A stretch of DNA of 64,000 nt from contig JAUIIY010000007.1 of NCBI GenBank assembly GCA_030431375.1, positions 4,228 through 68,227 of the forward strand. The letters are read 5' to 3'. Position numbers and translations under genes: made by a program. This DNA comes from Alphaproteobacteria bacterium. GTDB taxonomy: Bacteria > Pseudomonadota > Alphaproteobacteria > Rickettsiales > JABSSG01. Shown in pieces: positions 1 to 8,313 of the stretch. The notes beneath the pieces were generated by a model. It saw nothing but the letters and a program-made list of their open reading frames with translations, ran no database searches and was not told the DNA's origin. Position 1 is the first letter of the stretch. The number at the start of each line of letters is the position of its first letter.

Positions 1-3000
1 CAAAATTTGGCAATGACATATATACGTTAGAAAGTGAATCATTCGGAATTTGTAAACCGTGCTTCATTGCTAAAAGTTGATGCAGTCCATTATGCCAGAG
101 CATATTTTGTGAGATGGTCCCTGTATTATGCTGATGAATTTTTATTTGACTAAAGCCAGCGGATAGATGCTCTTGCACCAAATAATCTTCACCCTCTGAG
201 TACTTCACAGAGTTTAAAATTGAATCCATCCATATATTTGCATAGTCTGGCATAACAAAATCATACAAATGATTTGGTATTAATAGAGTTTTATCTCTTT
301 CTAGCTCACCTTCCATATATGCTCTATAAGAACTATTTGGAATTGTAGAAGCTTTTAATTCTCGAAGCGCTTGCTCCTTTAAAAACTCTGTATAAGCCGT
401 TTGATTGCCAATTTCAGTAACCGTAATTTTTGGTAACTCTTCAGGATTTTCTGGGGCCTCAACCTGCTTGTAATAATATATATCATCCTTTACCTCTGTA
501 TCACTGAGAATTCTATTTGCAACTGTAGCTTGATGATAAAGTATATGCTTTAAATGCTCAAAACCGGCAATAGGATCAACTAACTTAACTATATGCTGTA
601 TTTGATCAATTAGAATATTATCTACTTCATCCAATATCAGAACATCTTGAGTCCTTCCATATCTATAATTGTCAATTGTAGCTGTTTTTAATATATCTCC
701 AATAAAAACCAGCGGCGAACCATAAACTACATTAGCCTTATAACAACTTTTGGGCTTATCTCCGATACCACCCCTTACCGCATTAGCCATAGTAATTCCT
801 AATGAGTTAAAAAAAGGTGCTTGTTTTTCAGCTTCATTAGCTAAGGCATCCGAGCTAGTTACCACATCAACATATAAATTTGTCATAGCTCGTATGGCCG
901 CTGTCATAGCAACAATAGCGGTTTTTCCTTCACCTGTGCTAACTTGTATTAATCGGCCACTTTCAGATTTTAAAAGTGCTAATATGGAGATTAACTGCAC
1001 GTCACGGAGGTAATATTCGCCCTCAAATACAGTTTTATGCATAGCTTCAGAAGCTACAGCTAAAATCTTAGGAAGGGTTTCATTATTCAGTTCGTGAACA
1101 GACTCTTTGAAATTTTTATACCACGCATCTTCATATAGTGATTTAAGTTCACTAGCATATGTATGATGCTCAGATGACGAGCGCTCTTTATCTGAGAGAA
1201 GTTCAAAAATTTTGTTAAATGCTATAGAATGCTCAAGTTCAGAAAGGTTTAAAAAATTTATATCCTCTGATTCACTAGGTATTATATCTTTTAAAGTTGT
1301 TTGAACATAACGACCTGACTCTTTGTCGATATATCTAATATATATCTCATCAAACATTGGGTATACATACACAGTATTTGCATTAGTATTCCTTCTATCT
1401 GACGAATCAGTGATTAAAAATTCGTAACCTGCATCATCTAATTCCTTAATCATAGGCACTTCATATAGTTGCCTCTGTAGCTGGTAACTAGGGTTCTTTA
1501 CAAAAAAACTTGTCTGTTCTTCCCCATTTAATGAAGTAAATACTAAAGAATTTTGCTTTTTTGTAACCGTAATTTTGTCTGGAGTTAACCCTGGCTCATT
1601 ACCACCAGAATGCAAATTGAAATCAAGCGCATCAAAAAATTGACTTAATTTCTCCTGCTCTTTATGAGTTTCAATTATAATATGTCGTGAATCCCTTACA
1701 AATTCTTCAGCAATCTCTGGAGGATTATTTTTAGAGATTTCGGCTAAAATTTCTTCTAAATCTCTAGAAAAATACAATCTATTATCATCTGAAACAGTTT
1801 TAATTTTTTTATCCCAAAATTCTGGCTCAAATTTTGAGAAGACATCTATAACACGCAGCCCATCTCTATCTATAGTGAATGGACCAATATTATAATTTAC
1901 AACCCTTTTTAAAGCTTTATAAAAATGCTGTTCATTACCAGAATTTAAATAGGAAAAAAGTAAATTTTTTTGTGACAAAGTCCATGATTCAGAATTATAG
2001 AAATTTTTTACAGTTCTCTCAAAATCTGTAGGGGCTTTTTTTATCCAATCTGATGCATTTGCTGTTCCGTGAGCGGTATCACCCGAGCCTTCTAAACCCT
2101 TAGTTTTATAGGCTGGATCTTTTGACAAACAGTTACTACTATACCCAACCTTATTAAATAAAGAATCTAAAATTCTTTTTTGAGCATCATCATAGCTTGT
2201 ACATTTATCTTCAAGCTTATCATATATTTGCGAAGGTAATCCAGCATTCTTATCTGATAGGCGGTTACCAATAAATAATATTTTATTGCTCAATGATGAG
2301 TCATTTTTATTTATAGCATCCACATATGAAGAAATATTCTCTACAAAAATTTGAAGATTTTTCCATATATCATCTGATAATGACTGTGTGGTAATTAGCC
2401 TTTCGAAAAAAACTAAAAATGACGATATATGATCATTTTTAGCATCAAAAGATTTGCTTTGCTTTGCCAATATTTCTGATAATGCAAAAATTATTGGATT
2501 TGGGACATCATAATACAAATCTAAGATTTTATGACATATATCCATGACAAAATCAGCGTCTGGAGTATCTTTTTCTAATTCTCGTTCCAAAAGCTCGAAA
2601 ATAACTTTTGTAGTGTGATGTTTTGAAATAGGGTTCATCCCCTCTCGCAGATATTCTGTAAAAATAGCCGCTAGCTCAATTTTTGGCTTATATAGCTCAG
2701 CTCCGGCTCCAGCAAGCAATAAACTAACCAGAGCTGACTCGGCAGTTTTTTTTCCTGCAGTCACAGCTCCAAGATCTAGTAAATTCTCAAAAATAGTAAA
2801 TAATTCTGAATTATACTCAATACCTTCCAAGACACCTTTGGTAAAAGATTTGTATATGTTTGAGACAAAATGATCTGATAAAAATCTGTGCGCTACATCT
2901 TTTTCAATAAAATCCGCTATATACTGAACATGAGATGTGTCTTCAGCATGCTCAAGTGCATGTCTAACAATTAGGTTTGTTGTGTGCTCATACGGTGCGT

Positions 3001-3541
3001 AGGTATTATATTTTGAGAAATACAGTTTTTTGTACCCCTGGAGAATTCTAGGAGAATAACTTACTGTTGTTTCTATTGCTTCCAACGATGCTGAAGAGAC
3101 AATGTACTGATCATCATCTAAAACGGCTGATACGGTCAAAAAGATTGGGTGAGCTTTGGACTGCGCAAGCACCTTGTCTAACAACTCATATTTTTGCTCT
3201 TGAGCGAGCCTCCGCAATTGCTGTTTTATAACCGATGGATTATTTTGAAAATATTGATCCAATATTTTATATTGATAATTAATATCCTCAGCCTGTAAGA
3301 CATAAGTATAGTTACCATCGCTATTTTGAAAAATATTTTCGTCCTTTTGAGCCGAATCCTTGAAAAATTTATTAGGGAATTTACACTCCAAAAGCTTTTG
3401 AAAATCACACTCTAAATCATTCTTTACAAAATTGTTCCACAACTCATTATAACCAGGAGAATTATCAAGCATGCCGTTTACTGCAATACTATTGAAATAA
3501 TATTCTTCATCAAAAAATAGTGATATAAAATCTGTGTTCAT
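1..3541 (-). CDS. Giant SecA-like DEAD-motor protein (>=1180 aa, runs off the left window edge; absent from the ORF track)
   Basis: Manual translation of several segments from ATG 3541 (MNTDFISLFFDEEYY...) is open and in the same frame as the motifs near position 1. SecA motifs in order: LRDVQL, Walker A STGEGKT (920-940), VDVVTSS, LILDEVDNILID (DEVD 620-631), WHNGLHQLLAMKHG (~55-100). Confidence 0.85.
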   Translation of the reverse strand, partial: MNTDFISLFFDEEYYFNSIAVNGMLDNSPGYNELWNNFVKNDLECDFQKLLECKFPNKFFKDSAQKDENIFQNSDGNYTYVLQAEDINYQYKILDQYFQNNPSVIKQQLRRLAQEQKYELLDKVLAQSKAHPIFLTVSAVLDDDQYIVSSASLEAIETTVSYSPRILQGYKKLYFSKYNTYAPYEHTTNLIVRHALEHAEDTSHVQYIADFIEKDVAHRFLSDHFVSNIYKSFTKGVLEGIEYNSELFTIFENLLDLGAVTAGKKTAESALVSLLLAGAGAELYKPKIELAAIFTEYLREGMNPISKHHTTKVIFELLERELEKDTPDADFVMDICHKILDLYYDVPNPIIFALSEILAKQSKSFDAKNDHISSFLVFFERLITTQSLSDDIWKNLQIFVENISSYVDAINKNDSSLSNKILFIGNRLSDKNAGLPSQIYDKLEDKCTSYDDAQKRILDSLFNKVGYSSNCLSKDPAYKTKGLEGSGDTAHGTANASDWIKKAPTDFERTVKNFYNSESWTLSQKNLLFSYLNSGNEQHFYKALKRVVNYNIGPFTIDRDGLRVIDVFSKFEPEFWDKKIKTVSDDNRLYFSRDLEEILAEISKNNPPEIAEEFVRDSRHIIIETHKEQEKLSQFFDALDFNLHSGGNEPGLTPDKITVTKKQNSLVFTSLNGEEQTSFFVKNPSYQLQRQLYEVPMIKELDDAGYEFLITDSSDRRNTNANTVYVYPMFDEIYIRYIDKESGRYVQTTLKDIIPSESEDINFLNLSELEHSIAFNKIFELLSDKERSSSEHHTYASELKSLYEDAWYKNFKESVHELNNETLPKILAVASEAMHKTVFEGEYYLRDVQLISILALLKSESGRLIQVSTGEGKTAIVAMTAAIRAMTNLYVDVVTSSDALANEAEKQAPFFNSLGITMANAVRGGIGDKPKSCYKANVVYGSPLVFIGDILKTATIDNYRYGRTQDVLILDEVDNILIDQIQHIVKLVDPIAGFEHLKHILYHQATVANRILSDTEVKDDIYYYKQVEAPENPEELPKITVTEIGNQTAYTEFLKEQALRELKASTIPNSSYRAYMEGELERDKTLLIPNHLYDFVMPDYANIWMDSILNSVKYSEGEDYLVQEHLSAGFSQIKIHQHNTGTISQNMLWHNGLHQLLAMKHGLQIPNDSLSNVYMSLPNF

Positions 3542-3579
3542 TTCTAGAGATGCCTGTTTTTTTAATTAATCGTTACTAT

Positions 3580-4266
3580 TTAATAGCTATATTCTGATAC
3601 ATAATGTTGGTGACCAGATACTTCTTGTGATTTAGCATGAATAAGAAATGACGATTGGACCTCTGTGGTTTTAGTGGCATATTCATCTGGTGAAGCCTCA
3701 TACTCGGCCTCACTATTTAGCTCCGTATCCATATCGGCCCAGTTTTGTGCAATTTGGCTATCGTAATTGCCTATTAATGCCCGTAAAGCCTCAATCTGAC
3801 CTTCTATCTCCTGGCTTTTTGCTTGCTCCTTCTCATTTAGAATTTGATCGCATTTCGCAGCATTACTTGCTGGAGAACCCCTATAGCAAGAAATAAATTC
3901 TCGCTCCTTAGCGCTGATCTCAGCTTTCTTTGCCTCCAAGAAATTCAGCTGCACCGTAAAATTCATCTTCTGCGAATATAGCTCATTGAAATTCTCCTGA
4001 TAACCATCCAAGGCTAAAAATTTAATATGCTTCTGCTCAAGCTCATATTCATCGCGTATCCGACCAACAAATATATCATCAGCCTCCTTTACTGCTTTGC
4101 TCATTGCCTCTTCAACCAACGCATTCTTCTTGTCGAGAAGCTCCTGCTCATATTCCTTCCGAGGATAACGACCATGCATCTCATCTGCTTTTTCTTTACC
4201 GTATAATCTCACTGCAATTTTGTAATTTGTTTTTGCTCTTTCTATCCAACGTGAACGTGTAGTCAT
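3580..4266 (-). CDS. Hypothetical coiled-coil protein, tandem paralog 1 of 3 (228 aa)
   Basis: ORF track; AAGGAG SD upstream; near-identical to the two adjacent ORFs. Confidence 0.85.
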   Translation of the reverse strand: MTTRSRWIERAKTNYKIAVRLYGKEKADEMHGRYPRKEYEQELLDKKNALVEEAMSKAVKEADDIFVGRIRDEYELEQKHIKFLALDGYQENFNELYSQKMNFTVQLNFLEAKKAEISAKEREFISCYRGSPASNAAKCDQILNEKEQAKSQEIEGQIEALRALIGNYDSQIAQNWADMDTELNSEAEYEASPDEYATKTTEVQSSFLIHAKSQEVSGHQHYVSEYSY

Positions 4267-4291
4267 ATTAAGGCTCCTTATAATTTATATT

Positions 4292-4978
4292 CTAATAGCT
4301 ATATTCTGATACATAATGTTGATGGCCAGCTACTTTTTGTGATTTAGCATGAATGAGAAATGACGATTGGACCTCTGTGGTTTCAGTTGCATATTCATCT
4401 GGTGAGGCCTCATACTCGACTTCAATATTTAGCTCCGTATCCATATCGGCCCAGTTTTGTGCAATTTGACTGTCATAATTGCCTATTAATGCCCGTAAAG
4501 CCTCAATCTGACCTTCTATCTCCTGGCTTTTTGCTTGCTCCTTCTCATTTAGAATTTGATCGCATTTCGCAGCATTACTTGCTGGAGAACCCCTATAGCA
4601 AGAAATAAATTCTCGCTCCTTAGCGCTGATCTCAGCCTTCTTCGCCTCCAAGAAATTCAGCTGCACCGTAAAATTCATCTTCTGCGAATATAGCTCATTG
4701 AAATTCTCCTGAAAGCCTTCCAAGGCTAAAAATTTAATATGCTTCTGCTCAAGCTCATATTCATCGCGTATCCGACCAACAAATATATCATCAGCCTCCT
4801 TTACTGCACTAACCATTGCCTCTTCAACCAACGCATTTTTCTTGTCAGCAAGCTCCTGCTCATATTCCTTCCTAGGATAACGACCATGCATCTCATCTGC
4901 TTTTTCTTTACCGTATAATCTCACTGCAATTTTGTAATTTGTTTTTGCTTTTTCTATCCAACGTGGGTGTACATTCAT
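4292..4978 (-). CDS. Hypothetical coiled-coil protein, tandem paralog 2 of 3 (228 aa)
   Basis: ORF track; AAGAGG SD upstream; 15 aa differences from copy 1. Confidence 0.85.
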   Translation of the reverse strand: MNVHPRWIEKAKTNYKIAVRLYGKEKADEMHGRYPRKEYEQELADKKNALVEEAMVSAVKEADDIFVGRIRDEYELEQKHIKFLALEGFQENFNELYSQKMNFTVQLNFLEAKKAEISAKEREFISCYRGSPASNAAKCDQILNEKEQAKSQEIEGQIEALRALIGNYDSQIAQNWADMDTELNIEVEYEASPDEYATETTEVQSSFLIHAKSQKVAGHQHYVSEYSY

Positions 4979-5054
4979 GGCTAAACCTCTTATATTTTAT
5001 ATTCTAATGTTAGTAAAAAATCGTTTGATCTGAGTTTTGAGAAGTACGTCATAT

Positions 5055-5741
5055 TTAATAGCTATATTCTGATACATAATGTTGATGGCCAGCTACTTCT
5101 TGTGATTTAGCATGAATAAGAAATGACGATTGAACCTCTGTAGTTTTAGTGGCATATTCATCTGGTGAAGCCTCATACTCGACTTCAATATTTAGCTCCG
5201 TATCCATATCGGCCCAGTTTTGTGCAATTTGACTGTCATAATTGCCTATTAATGCCCGTAAAGCCTCGATCTGGCCTTCTATCTCTTGGCTTTTTGCTTG
5301 CTCCTTCTCATTGAGAATTTGATCGCATTTCGCAGCATTACTTGCTGGAGAACCCCTATAGCAAGAAATAAATTCTCGCTCCTTAGCGCTGATCTCAGCT
5401 TTCTTCGCCTCCAAGAAATTCAGCTGCACCGTGAAATTCATCTTCTGCGAATATAGCTCATTGAAATTCTCCTGAAAGCCTTCCAATGCTAAAAACTTAA
5501 TATGCTTCTGCTCAAGCTCATATTCATCTTGTATCCGACCAACAAATATATCATCAGCCTCCTTTACTGCTTTGCTCATTGCCTCTTCAACTAACGCATT
5601 CTTCTTGTCGAGAAGCTCCTGCTCATATTCCTTCCTCGGATAACGACCATGCATCTCATCTGCTTTTTCTTTGCCGTATAATTTTACTGCAAGTTTATAA
5701 TTTGTCTTGGCTTTTTCTTTTAAGCGTGAATAAGCGCTCAT
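5055..5741 (-). CDS. Hypothetical coiled-coil protein, tandem paralog 3 of 3 (228 aa)
   Basis: ORF track; AAGGAG SD upstream; 14 aa differences from each of the other copies. Confidence 0.85.
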   Translation of the reverse strand: MSAYSRLKEKAKTNYKLAVKLYGKEKADEMHGRYPRKEYEQELLDKKNALVEEAMSKAVKEADDIFVGRIQDEYELEQKHIKFLALEGFQENFNELYSQKMNFTVQLNFLEAKKAEISAKEREFISCYRGSPASNAAKCDQILNEKEQAKSQEIEGQIEALRALIGNYDSQIAQNWADMDTELNIEVEYEASPDEYATKTTEVQSSFLIHAKSQEVAGHQHYVSEYSY

Positions 5742-6005
5742 AATAATAACTCCTTATTTATAAATTATTTTCTAATTAGCTGAATAAATCAGAAGCGTTT
5801 TTATTAAGCACAAATTTGCCACAAGCAACAAAAACACATGCTGTTACTGCCCTGTAACAAAAAAGCTTTCAAAGTTCTAGAAATCAAGTTGGAGAGCATT
5901 AATTTGCCCATTTTGACGCCTCATCATTAAAAATTACTAATTTAATTTTTCCACCTAAAGGACACCCAGCCCTCGTTCTTCAGATTACTAACATATAAAA
6001 ACACT

Positions 6006-6027
6006 TTGTCAACGTATAAATTGACAA
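6006..6027. promoter_or_regulatory. Inverted repeat TTGTCAA-N8-TTGACAA, probably back-to-back sigma70 -35 elements
   Basis: Perfect TTGACA on both strands between divergent genes; -10 matches are weak. Confidence 0.4.
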
Positions 6028-6074
6028 TTAAATTATATTAGTTATTTTTTCTTGGAATTAATTAGCTATAAATT

Positions 6075-6944
6075 ATGGAAAATTACTACTGGGAAAGCAA
6101 TACAGGGCTAATTGAGCTTGAGGGGATTGATTTTGATATAGAGAAATGCAACCTCAAATATGAAGATTTGTTTATAAATATCGAAGAAGCAGCCAGCTCA
6201 ATAACCGAGAAAAACTTAACTTTTATCACCTATGATCTCGCTATATCAGAAGCAGAAAATTTTCATATTGCCCAAACAATTTTAAAGAGCTCTGATAAAG
6301 GTACAGAAACATATTTTAATTCCGCTTTGCATAACCCGGCAGAAGAAATAGATATTTTTTTAAACCGCCTCATGCCGGATGGGATGCAATCTACTAAAAT
6401 GGTGATGAAGAATCTACTGACAAATATAATTAGCGCCACCATATCTGCCTCTGGATATGAATATGCAGAAGTGGATATAAGGCTTCATTCCAAAACGACT
6501 GAAAATTTTATGGATCTCCATATTGATAAATCGCATGCAGAAATGATTTCTCAGTGTGGCAGGGATAGCGATGATAAAAATTTTGCAAAGCAAAAAGTTT
6601 TCATATTCCCTCTATATGGTGAAGCAACATACTTCTTTGATATGCCTGACGCGGTAAGAGGTGAATTTTTACAATACACTCATGAAACTAGCTCAACTTA
6701 CGGACAAGCATATTCTGAGCATCAAAGTGAAATTTTAGAGCTGTTTGAAAAAATGAATTTTCACACAGCAGAAGCAGGACAAGCCTCTATTCATTACGCC
6801 GGAACGGATGGAACGATTCACTCAAAACCTTTTTTTCATGAAAAACGCTTAGTTGTACTCGTTTACCCTAACCAAAAAGATATATTATTAAATTTAGATG
6901 CTTGTTTTGTGGAAGCTTTAAATAAAGCTGCAAAGCGAACATAA
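6075..6944 (+). CDS. Putative 2OG-Fe(II) oxygenase-fold (DUF1826-like) protein
   Basis: LHID (HxD), then YGEAT, then GTIHSKP..RLVVLV pattern. Confidence 0.5.
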   Translation: MENYYWESNTGLIELEGIDFDIEKCNLKYEDLFINIEEAASSITEKNLTFITYDLAISEAENFHIAQTILKSSDKGTETYFNSALHNPAEEIDIFLNRLMPDGMQSTKMVMKNLLTNIISATISASGYEYAEVDIRLHSKTTENFMDLHIDKSHAEMISQCGRDSDDKNFAKQKVFIFPLYGEATYFFDMPDAVRGEFLQYTHETSSTYGQAYSEHQSEILELFEKMNFHTAEAGQASIHYAGTDGTIHSKPFFHEKRLVVLVYPNQKDILLNLDACFVEALNKAAKRT

Positions 6945-6957
6945 ACACATCTTTTGA

Positions 6958-8313
6958 TCAACCACGACCTTGTCCTTGACCAGCTTTACGACCAGCTCCA
7001 GGGGATGAGGATGGTGCCGCAGGAGCGCCAGATTTTGCCGTTTCTGGGTTTGCTGTTAATCTTTCAACTATATGTGCAGGTGGACCCTCTGGGTAAATAT
7101 CTTCGTATCTTGGCGGAGGCGCTGGAGGAACTAATTTTGTCAGATCCGCTCCCGAACGATCTGCTGATATAGCAGGCTGAGAAGTCACACTAGCTGGCAC
7201 TGTAGGAGGATCAGCTTCTCTTCCATCATTTAACACTGCCGTCTCCCCTCTTCCCCTATCTCTTTCATGTTCTCTAACAGGTTGCCCTGGGGCAGGAGAA
7301 GGCGTAGGAGCAACTTTTGCAGCTTGTGGCTGTATAGCTTTGCCGCTTATCAATTCAATATTACGTTTTTCATTATATTGAAATAGACCTGCACCCGGAA
7401 TTAACGAACCAGCAAGATCTCCAAAATGCCTACCCAAGGTTTTTTTCGGATGTGCGCCTATGGAGCATAATTTATCAGCAGCAACGACTGCAGGTCCAAC
7501 CGCTACAAAACTTGCTGGAGGAGGCAGTGCACCAGCTGCAGCACCGGCTAAAGTCATTGAAATTATTCGGCCCGCTCCTCTAGCCCATCTTTTATACCAC
7601 TTTTCGTTTTTGTTTGCATTTTTGTGAGATATATTTGCAGCTATTGCACTTGCACAACCAGTAATTGCACCCACAATAGCTCCACCAATAGGTCCACCGA
7701 GGCTGTAAGCACCCCACATTACACCCGAATAAACAACTCCTACTCCACCAGTAAGTATACTCCTCCCACCTAATTTCAAAGTTGATCCAGCAACATTTTT
7801 AGCTACTCCCGTCACTCCAATTTCACTTCTGTTACCTGTAACAAAAAGTCCTTTAGATTTAGTAATAAGCCCAATATCATCTGCTGTACTAGTAGCATTA
7901 GCTAGCTCATATTGTTCTCTTTCCCGCCTCTTTCTTTCTCGCTTTTCTTTTTGTTTTGCCTCATTAGCTTCACGTTTAACAGCCCTTTCTTTTTCTTTTC
8001 TTTTTGCTTTCTCCTCTCGGGCTCTCACTTTTGCCTCTTGTCTTTCTCGCCTTTTCTTTGCCCTAGCTTCTTTATCGGCTTCCTTTTTCTTATCCGCTTC
8101 TTCTTTTTTTCTTCTCGCTGCTTCTCTTTGCTCCTCAGTTCGTGGTTTGCCAAATAAATTCATCCCCCCAAAGAAGGATTTTTTTTCTCCTTTTTTAGCT
8201 TCAACTACAGGACCTTTCTTTTCAGCCCTTTGTTCTTGTGCTTTTTCAGCTGCAGCTCTAGCTGCCTCAGTTTCAGCTTGCGCTTTTCTTAATCGATCTG
8301 CAACACTAGACAT
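6958..8313 (-). CDS. Hypothetical effector-like protein: charged coiled coil, glycine-zipper hydrophobic segments, Pro-rich tail
   Basis: 451-aa ORF; K/E/R-rich N-half, GxxxG repeats, PPPRY motif, basic Gly-rich C-terminus. Confidence 0.75.
   Translation of the reverse strand: MSSVADRLRKAQAETEAARAAAEKAQEQRAEKKGPVVEAKKGEKKSFFGGMNLFGKPRTEEQREAARRKKEEADKKKEADKEARAKKRRERQEAKVRAREEKAKRKEKERAVKREANEAKQKEKRERKRREREQYELANATSTADDIGLITKSKGLFVTGNRSEIGVTGVAKNVAGSTLKLGGRSILTGGVGVVYSGVMWGAYSLGGPIGGAIVGAITGCASAIAANISHKNANKNEKWYKRWARGAGRIISMTLAGAAAGALPPPASFVAVGPAVVAADKLCSIGAHPKKTLGRHFGDLAGSLIPGAGLFQYNEKRNIELISGKAIQPQAAKVAPTPSPAPGQPVREHERDRGRGETAVLNDGREADPPTVPASVTSQPAISADRSGADLTKLVPPAPPPRYEDIYPEGPPAHIVERLTANPETAKSGAPAAPSSSPGAGRKAGQGQGRG

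Follow-up and report, generated by a model that had tools for sequence, protein, structure and literature searches.

What is the role of a giant SecA-like protein that is preceded, in a small rickettsial genome, by three nearly identical small genes? We addressed this question for a 64,000-nucleotide (nt) stretch from an alphaproteobacterium of the order Rickettsiales (GenBank assembly GCA_030431375.1, contig JAUIIY010000007.1, positions 4,228 to 68,227; G000:C9:4228-68227 in our labels), which in its full length is referred to below as the window. The genome comprises 1.41 megabases (Mb) with 35% guanine plus cytosine (G+C) on 20 contigs and is 96% complete. Four open reading frames (ORFs) in the window lie on the same, minus strand, namely three of 228 amino acids (aa), which we call M, followed by that of the giant, and the gaps between them are 76, 25, and 38 base pairs (bp). 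An earlier note on this DNA had pointed out these co-oriented genes, the lack of an evident terminator between them, and the SecA-like nature of the giant. Its observations were confirmed by the ORF list, by a terminator search (0 terminator-like sites in positions 3300-6200, compared with 1.7 ± 1.2 in shuffled sequences), and by the Pfam matches given below, and its interpretation was partly supported. We consider it probable that the locus represents the 5' portion of a polymorphic-toxin cassette that is found mainly in Rickettsiales and consists of a further gene, X, then M, here in three tandem copies, and then the giant.

Our analysis showed that X, followed by M and then the giant, occurs in 11 distinct cassettes. 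The three genes are co-oriented with short gaps in loci L028, L051, L084, L036, L033, L037, L032, L109, L113, and L114, and locus L108 has them in the same divergent layout as the window (L112 and L111 repeat L036 and L033 and were not counted as distinct). An additional Arcanobacter locus is truncated by a contig start; one and the same M, with the same beginning of the giant, is found on contigs L030 and L031. The interval between X and the giant always holds a small helix-rich protein of 170-362 aa. The closest loci belong to Candidatus Bandiella, Candidatus Arcanobacter, the Rickettsiales endosymbiont of Peranema, and uncultured Rickettsia/Rickettsiales, and more distant ones to Coxiellaceae, Holosporaceae, the Wolbachia of Tribolium confusum, Legionella, and chlamydiae. 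Of the 80 loci compared, roughly one half hold ordinary-sized SecA-like proteins and not giants. In other genomes, homologs of X (E = 3e-20 to 1e-12) lie immediately upstream of giants, and X was found in 7 of the 80 loci, co-oriented with the giant in every one. Among 400 scored Rickettsiales genomes, 16 contain X, 14 contain the post-motor region of the giant, and 12 contain both, where about 0.6 would be expected by chance; these hits span six GTDB families, and related genomes among them are not independent. X occurs without a giant in G001, G005 (with an in-frame TGA), G009, and G384, and a giant without X in G088 and G115. The recurrence of a small helical protein upstream of the giant in 11 cassettes agrees with the proposal of the earlier note that the small genes and the giant form a unit, although X, the third and best-supported partner, had been missed.

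At least 2589 aa of the giant are encoded on contig C9, where the gene is truncated by the contig end; the part beyond the window lies on C9:1-4227. The sequence of C9:1-103 is identical to C7:471-573, and the frame there is open for at least 156 more residues with no stop reached. Frames at contig ends gave no convincing candidate for the missing 3' end. Within the giant, Pfam searches detected SecA_DEAD (PF07517) at residues 809-1197 (E = 3.7e-27) and P-loop_SecA (PF21090, E = 3e-13), and SecA_PP_bind (PF01043) was under its cut-off (E = 0.077). The position of the preprotein-binding domain is occupied by an insert of ~220 aa, which in a 5-sequence alignment carries the invariant W..GLHQ....KH, a stretch that we take to be a match to the SecA preprotein-binding domain. 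The invariant motor columns of our giant and four relatives include GEGK, DEVD, TGT, GRG.D, and the arginine-rich G-R-x-x-R-x-G, and full motif strings such as GEGKT can be read in our giant's own sequence. A search of the PDB with the motor profile returned SecA/SecA2 chains only (24 of the 24 listed, best E = 8.4e-56), with the match ending near chain residue 555-588. Judged by its sequence, the giant's motor is SecA-type and its ATPase motifs, including Walker A, Walker B, and the arginine finger, are intact. We also considered the giant as the SecA of the cell and rejected this, as the NCBIfam SecA models gave ~79 bits against a cut-off of ~800, a canonical secA of 903 aa is encoded on C18, and the motor falls into a separate clade. 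In a midpoint-rooted FastTree phylogeny of 88 motor domains, the 31 motors of the giant type group into one clade, separate from the canonical SecA proteins, the genome's own among them (Shimodaira-Hasegawa-like support 0.975).

Outside the motor, residues ~800-2390 of the giant as a whole are conserved among relatives, and the N-terminal domain at ~160-640 is likewise. A helical region lies after the second nucleotide-binding domain (NBD2), and hydropathy analysis revealed a glycine-rich hydrophobic stretch at residues 1996-2130. Of these parts, the window encodes the N-terminal domain and, from residue ~809 onward, the SecA-like first nucleotide-binding domain (NBD1) with the beginning of the preprotein-binding-like insert; NBD2 and all that follows it are encoded beyond the window. 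The N-terminus has no hydrophobic signal and carries the motif (F)FDEEYY; giants with X and M share a motif of the L-x-L-F-F-D-x-E-Y-Y type, whereas in gammaproteobacterial relatives that have neither X nor M, a signal-anchor-like segment stands at the start. Pfam detected no known trafficking domain, such as TPS, PAAR/VgrG, LXG, or MuF, in our giant, in the three relatives that were scanned over their full length, or in those C-terminal parts of relatives that were scanned. A PDB sequence search gave nothing usable for the N-terminal domain or the post-motor region, and the last 700 aa and the C7 fragment had no Pfam match.

Some further features of the giants and their SecA-like relatives were observed along the way. 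The exact 103-bp repeat links the tail of our giant to a second partial copy on C7, which resembles an orphan module. Loci L050, L057, L063-L066, L079-L080, and many chlamydial loci encode a clade of SecA-like proteins of 735-1200 aa (Legionella, Mycoavidus, chlamydiae), which branches apart both from the giants and from the group with this genome's canonical SecA. The Wolbachia of Tribolium confusum has a 3908-aa ORF with a giant-type motor beside a 1509-aa SecA-like ORF (L046, 4934-16660). The genes before a gammaproteobacterial giant of 4081 aa (L035, 1981-4337) look ParA-like and replication-protein-like when read by eye, which suggests that this giant is located on a plasmid.

The complete relatives have recognizable C-terminal tips, namely Colicin_D (L031), the colicin-E3-type Cytotoxic domain PF09000 (L051), WHH/Colicin-DNase (L037), and AHH (L108), and a Coxiellaceae member has a lipase-like part. 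LysM domains are found in L028b, L033, L037, L035, and L108, in several cases after the membrane region and ahead of the tip. Downstream of the AHH tip in L108 lies an Imm11 gene, scoring exactly at its cut-off (22.1 bits), and small, variable genes of DUF6980, DUF2247, or DUF7674 lie downstream of other giants. L028 also has an orphan CdiA-CT RNase A ORF (RNAse_A_bac) with its own small neighbor. When the giants are aligned, those of L109 and L036 share 76-99% identity across columns 751-2550 and 14-23% across the last ~500 columns. Because such near-identical cores bear unrelated tips, we class the complete relatives, on their domain content and alignments, as polymorphic toxins. The predicted toxin nature of the giant in the window rests on this kinship, because its own tip is unassembled. 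The idea of an effector module, put forward in the earlier note, is thus borne out by the tips of complete relatives and stays a prediction for this giant. The giants of L036 and L113 also have a common junction motif, KKVFTKPDTPHHKTYTD, located ~130-150 residues before the C-terminal end and ahead of unrelated tips. This junction may mark a recombination boundary, and VENN marks such a boundary in CdiA.

The mosaic structure of the cassettes extends to M. Between L051 and L109, M is 66% identical and the tips are 14-20% identical, and between L109 and L036, X is 85% identical, M 18%, and the giant's first 300 columns 16-18%. Over the 55 pairs of the 11 cassettes, the partial correlation of M identity with the identity of the giant's N-terminus was 0.70 after removal of motor and X identity, a value reached in 0 of 5000 permutations, and that of M with X was -0.03. 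In these alignments, M varies with the giant's N-terminus (first 300 residues) and not with X, the motor, or the tip. We rejected M as an immunity protein because it tracks the giant's N-terminus and not the toxin tip; M also lies upstream of the giant, and immunity-type genes, such as Imm11 in L108, lie downstream. The immunity-like partnership that had been offered as one role for the small proteins thus falls away.

The three M paralogs of the window are 93-94% identical by pairwise alignment. Pairs of copies have 37-47 differences per 687 nt, with 14-26 synonymous compared with 14-15 non-synonymous codon differences, and the differences are concentrated at residues 2-10. The repeat unit has a period of about 712-763 nt and takes in ~25 nt of a GGAG-type ribosome-binding region, and all copies retain full-length frames and ribosome-binding sites. 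M is helix-rich and without a signal peptide, with a loop, CYRGSPASNAAKC, that is bracketed by its only two cysteines (C127-C139), and a tail ending in ...HQHYVSEYSY. The coiled-coil character that the earlier note gave to these proteins is at most putative, as a crude heptad test gave 7 windows compared with 3.4 ± 5.0 in 200 shuffles. M had no match in PADLOC, Pfam, or NCBIfam. Sequence similarity is weak among the M proteins of different cassettes, and our M is tied to the others only by its position, the Cys-bracketed Ser-Pro loop, and the tail motif; an acidic stretch and a His/Tyr/Gln/Glu tail are also common to M proteins. In the DNA sequencing runs X1 and X2, which are almost identical and may not be independent, the unitig common to the M copies had a depth of 43.5 compared with 7.9 in single-copy flanks, and an assembled contig joins position 5730 back to 4274 via 18 other letters. 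Because of this depth and back-joint, the copy number of M may exceed three, possibly reaching ~5-6 copies or varying between cells.

There are also several M-like sequences outside the array. A fourth gene with the first ~32 residues of M (MTRLSKHKEKAKTNYEFAVKLYGKEKADEMHG) lies at G000:C6:14288-14538, running into the end of C19, and then changes to PATNGTVVEA repeats in tandem, with a tail that is acidic. Loose ends in X1/X2 show this C6-type N-terminus plus one further N-terminal variant, and run X3, a marine metagenome, contains pieces 90-95% similar to the giant's start and to M. In Bandiella, arrays of short genes lie between X and M (L051, 3536-7213; L109, 3682-5348) and encode M-like proteins of 144-150 aa with an N-terminal Cys pair, which in L051 alternate with proteins of 114 aa whose start resembles a signal peptide.

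X has 36 relatives in a set of 5.8 billion proteins, all of them unnamed and without Pfam domains. Its invariant residues are H149-x-D151, H249, and R136, and H240 and R258 are nearly invariant. The H149-x-D151...H249...R258 spacing presumably recalls that of 2-oxoglutarate/Fe(II) oxygenases of the prolyl-hydroxylase type, which have a double-stranded beta-helix fold and in which a basic residue follows the distal His of the HxD...H triad by about 9 positions. An AlphaFold2 model of X (predicted local distance difference test score 76.1, predicted template modeling score 0.77) has a mixed alpha/beta fold with a strand-rich C-terminal half. A PDB sequence search with X gave nothing usable, and a search of this genome for PF13640 at E <= 10 found nothing. 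DUF1826, a lead that came via the homolog P0013, was rejected for X, as it matched 1 of 34 members at E = 0.15 and none in this genome. X is probably a metal-dependent enzyme, as predicted from its conserved residues.

How could these parts work together? In the reading that we favor, the giant would be modular and consist, in order, of an N-terminal docking region, the ATP-driven SecA-type motor, the helical region, and the glycine-rich membrane segment, and complete relatives continue with peptidoglycan-binding LysM and an exchangeable nuclease or lipase tip, with immunity genes downstream. From this order of parts we infer that the built-in motor would drive the C-terminal LysM-toxin part, and possibly also M, across the inner membrane without a signal peptide, acting either in cis or from molecule to molecule. 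The N-terminal part and the motor would stay cytoplasmic and the hydrophobic segment would sit in the inner membrane. M would be a partner that is matched to the variable N-terminus of the giant and serves as adaptor, chaperone, or co-exported protein, and X may act as an enzyme on M or on the giant. The targets would likely be competing bacteria in the same host cell, with host organelles as a further possibility. A more far-reaching version, which we put forward only tentatively, is that X, M, and the giant constitute an unrecognized self-powered toxin-export route of obligate intracellular bacteria, with its own SecA-type motor and membrane conduit. Here, an N-terminal docking module would replace the signal peptide and would be read by the dosage-amplified M and by the metal-enzyme family X, which would modify the Cys-bracketed Ser-Pro loop or the His/Tyr tail of M. 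This would represent a new trafficking class, used in symbiont warfare or against organelles.

A number of results weigh against this reading. The PDB matches of the motor span chain residues ~56-588 and do not reach the helical scaffold/wing, and the proposed model leaves the outer-membrane crossing of the toxin unaccounted for. There is no recognizable toxin, LysM, or immunity gene for this particular giant, whose 3' end is unassembled. The partnership with X has its exceptions, as G010, of the same GTDB family as this genome, has a giant and no X, and G001 holds X and M and no giant. X matches no Pfam family, the prolyl-hydroxylase-type PF13640 being absent in 34 of 34 members, and hhalign of X against 16 PF13640 proteins gave a probability of 0.15% with only HxD aligned. 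Searches for M homologs in the 5.8-billion and a 1.84-billion protein set (word-indexed and exhaustive HMMER) returned only its own cluster, none was found in 40 relatives, and hhalign of our M against six syntenic M proteins gave a probability of 0.23% (E = 0.27) with only the Cys-SP loop aligned. The loop pattern C.{2,4}SP.{4,7}C is present in 8 ORFs of the upstream slot among the 80 loci (7 distinct) compared with 9 of 1339 other ORFs, a contrast that is indicative only because the pattern was picked after the sequences had been inspected; the background in this genome is 11 of 1804 frames, L037 and L115 are without the pattern, and the loop variants of L108 and L113 fall just outside it. 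Lastly, the co-variation of M rests on few swap events among adjacent genes, for which simple linkage is as good an explanation as co-adaptation.

Other explanations draw on part of the same evidence. The giant could be a host-directed effector that leaves the cell by type IV or other secretion, with the M proteins as chaperones or co-effectors and the tips hitting nucleic acids of the host or its organelles. This would suit a small 1.41-Mb Rickettsiales genome with an ankyrin-repeat gene near the locus, and the acidic end region and conserved tail of M could act as a secretion signal. SecA-like helicase-related domains are listed among Amoebophilus effectors in the accessible part of one survey (PMC3482391), and polymorphic toxin loci of protist endosymbionts have been proposed to be host-addiction devices, as stated in the portion available to us of another study (PMC8163844). 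However, LysM, the colicin-type tips, the Imm11 neighbor, and the orphan CdiA-CT are hallmarks of inter-bacterial conflict, a membrane segment and a SecA-type motor would serve no evident purpose in an injected, soluble effector, and no secretion-system gene was seen beside the mapped cassettes. We consider this explanation unlikely.

The giant might instead be an accessory translocase for other proteins, with M as the main cargo and the toxin tips of relatives as secondary fusions. Such a role would account for the amplified dosage of M, which is multiplied here and in two Bandiella loci and for which the unitig depth hints at more than three copies. It would also agree with the conservation of the preprotein-binding-type W..GLHQ....KH, and the pair of cysteines in M brackets one loop, as is often seen in disulfide-stapled exported proteins, in a protein that has no signal peptide. 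Against this, toxin tips and genes of the immunity type are common throughout the clade, it is the N-terminus of the giant and not its motor that M follows, and SecA_PP_bind is sub-threshold. We regard an accessory translocase as quite improbable. Still less credible, to the point of being very improbable, is that the genes are adjacent without any shared function, the M triplet being a recent tandem duplication of an orphan gene beside the giant or a decaying remnant. M is indeed an orphan in every sequence search, copies 2 and 3 differ by nearly as many synonymous as non-synonymous codons (14 and 15), and the contig is fragmented at repeats. But the slot holds a small helical protein in each of the 11 distinct cassettes, most of these proteins possess the Cys-SP loop and a comparable tail, the three copies in the window all keep intact frames and ribosome-binding sites, and L108 repeats the divergent layout. 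A polymorphic-toxin cassette with X and M as accessory genes remains the reading that we favor.

The layout of the locus is summarized in Table 1. Promoter-like matches are at chance level overall (9 observed, 9.0 expected), and the sole strong one (10/12), at 6021-6048 on the plus strand, is oriented toward X; no convincing minus-strand promoter was found in 5742-6074. Two neighboring genes were recorded beyond X. At 6958-8313 (minus strand), the window encodes a protein of 451 aa that is rich in Lys/Glu/Arg at its N-terminus, glycine-rich and hydrophobic in its center, and proline-rich at its C-terminus. Its gene sits in a stretch of 42-48% G+C, compared with ~35% around it, and its Pfam and NCBIfam matches are weak and of low complexity only. 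At 8842-9600 (plus strand) lies a gene for a 252-aa ankyrin-repeat protein (Ank_2, E = 7e-29), and proteins of this kind are typical of host-interacting intracellular bacteria.

Table 1. Features of the X-M-giant locus, with positions counted in the window.
Feature	Position	Strand	Basis
M copy 1 (228 aa)	5055..5741	-	ORF translation, paralog alignment, motif counts
M copy 2 (228 aa)	4292..4978	-	ORF translation, paralog alignment
M copy 3 (228 aa), giant start 38 bp downstream	3580..4266	-	ORF translation, paralog alignment
Giant, first 1180 residues, start at 3541, open at window start	1..3541	-	ORF list, Pfam
Divergent intergenic region, 333 bp, common to M copy 1 and gene X	5742..6074	.	sequence
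Gene X (289 aa), divergent from M/giant	6075..6944	+	homology, co-occurrence

Polymorphic toxins are classed by their trafficking, and in this cassette trafficking seems to rely on an internal SecA-type motor together with two conserved partners of no known family, in carriers that live only inside eukaryotic cells. If the proposed reading is correct, it would add a delivery route to the known set and give a concrete function to the SecA-like domains that recur in giant proteins. It would also mean that reduced endosymbiont genomes still pay for anti-bacterial, and perhaps anti-organelle, weapons. The cassette makes the idea of self-export by giant proteins directly testable, as X, M, and the N-terminal domain are small and the ATPase motifs can be mutated.

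How does the cassette compare with known systems? No description of the X-M-giant cassette or of these Rickettsiales toxins was found in the full-text literature, a search that did not cover supplementary lists. The arrangement of genes, proposed in the earlier note to be an undescribed system, can in this sense be upheld, although a SecA-like motor within giant toxins has been noted before, as the available parts of two studies show (PMC8195603; bioRxiv 10.1101/2023.11.21.568195). Giant secreted toxins of actinobacteria have been described with domains of a SecA-like ATPase and of the major facilitator superfamily (MFS) that are predicted to aid their own secretion (Kaur, Iyer, Burroughs, Aravind 2021, PMC8195603). 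As far as the accessible text of that paper goes, they are like ours in being very large toxins with a built-in SecA-like ATPase and membrane-transport segments. They differ in belonging to another phylum and in their MFS membrane module, where our giant has a glycine-rich segment and its relatives have colicin-type nucleases and LysM. Partners such as X or M are not mentioned in the sections of that paper available to us, and the comparison is one of descriptions, not of sequences. The giants of Omnitrophota, for which self-export has also been proposed, have a divergent SecA_DEAD domain (bioRxiv 10.1101/2023.11.21.568195). According to the available portion of that preprint, they resemble ours in combining a SecA motor and preprotein-binding parts, without scaffold/wing, with nearby transmembrane regions and in coexisting with a normal secA. 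In contrast, they reach lengths of tens of thousands of residues, include carbohydrate-active domains and domains for adhesion, and are encoded by free-living predatory bacteria, and the same portion of the preprint mentions no colicin-type tip, immunity gene, or X-M cassette.

The contact-dependent inhibition (CDI), Rhs, and colicin-like systems (Zhang et al. 2012, PMC3482391) have in common with the relatives of our giant a conserved body, an exchangeable C-terminal toxin with a downstream immunity gene, orphan tip cassettes, and a sharp break in identity before the tip. Our clade differs from them in having no known trafficking domain in the parts scanned, in a transport that seems to depend on the internal SecA-type motor, and in the conserved genes X and M upstream. 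In the arrangement of its partners it brings to mind another group of toxins. The LXG toxins of type VII secretion have small helical Lap partners that are encoded upstream and matched to the N-terminal targeting region, and M resembles these partners in its position and its N-terminal matching; LXG systems are, however, Gram-positive type VII systems, and our giant is without a WXG or LXG domain. Housekeeping SecA and SecA2 have the same NBD1, preprotein-binding-like insert, NBD2, and full set of ATPase motifs as the giant motor, which is distinct from them in its model score (79 bits, far short of the 800-bit family cut-off), in having no scaffold/wing match, in forming part of a protein that exceeds 2700 aa, and in its separate clade. 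A SecA-like motor inside a giant toxin was already known from other phyla, and what appears to be new here is the cassette, with X and M as its accessory families.

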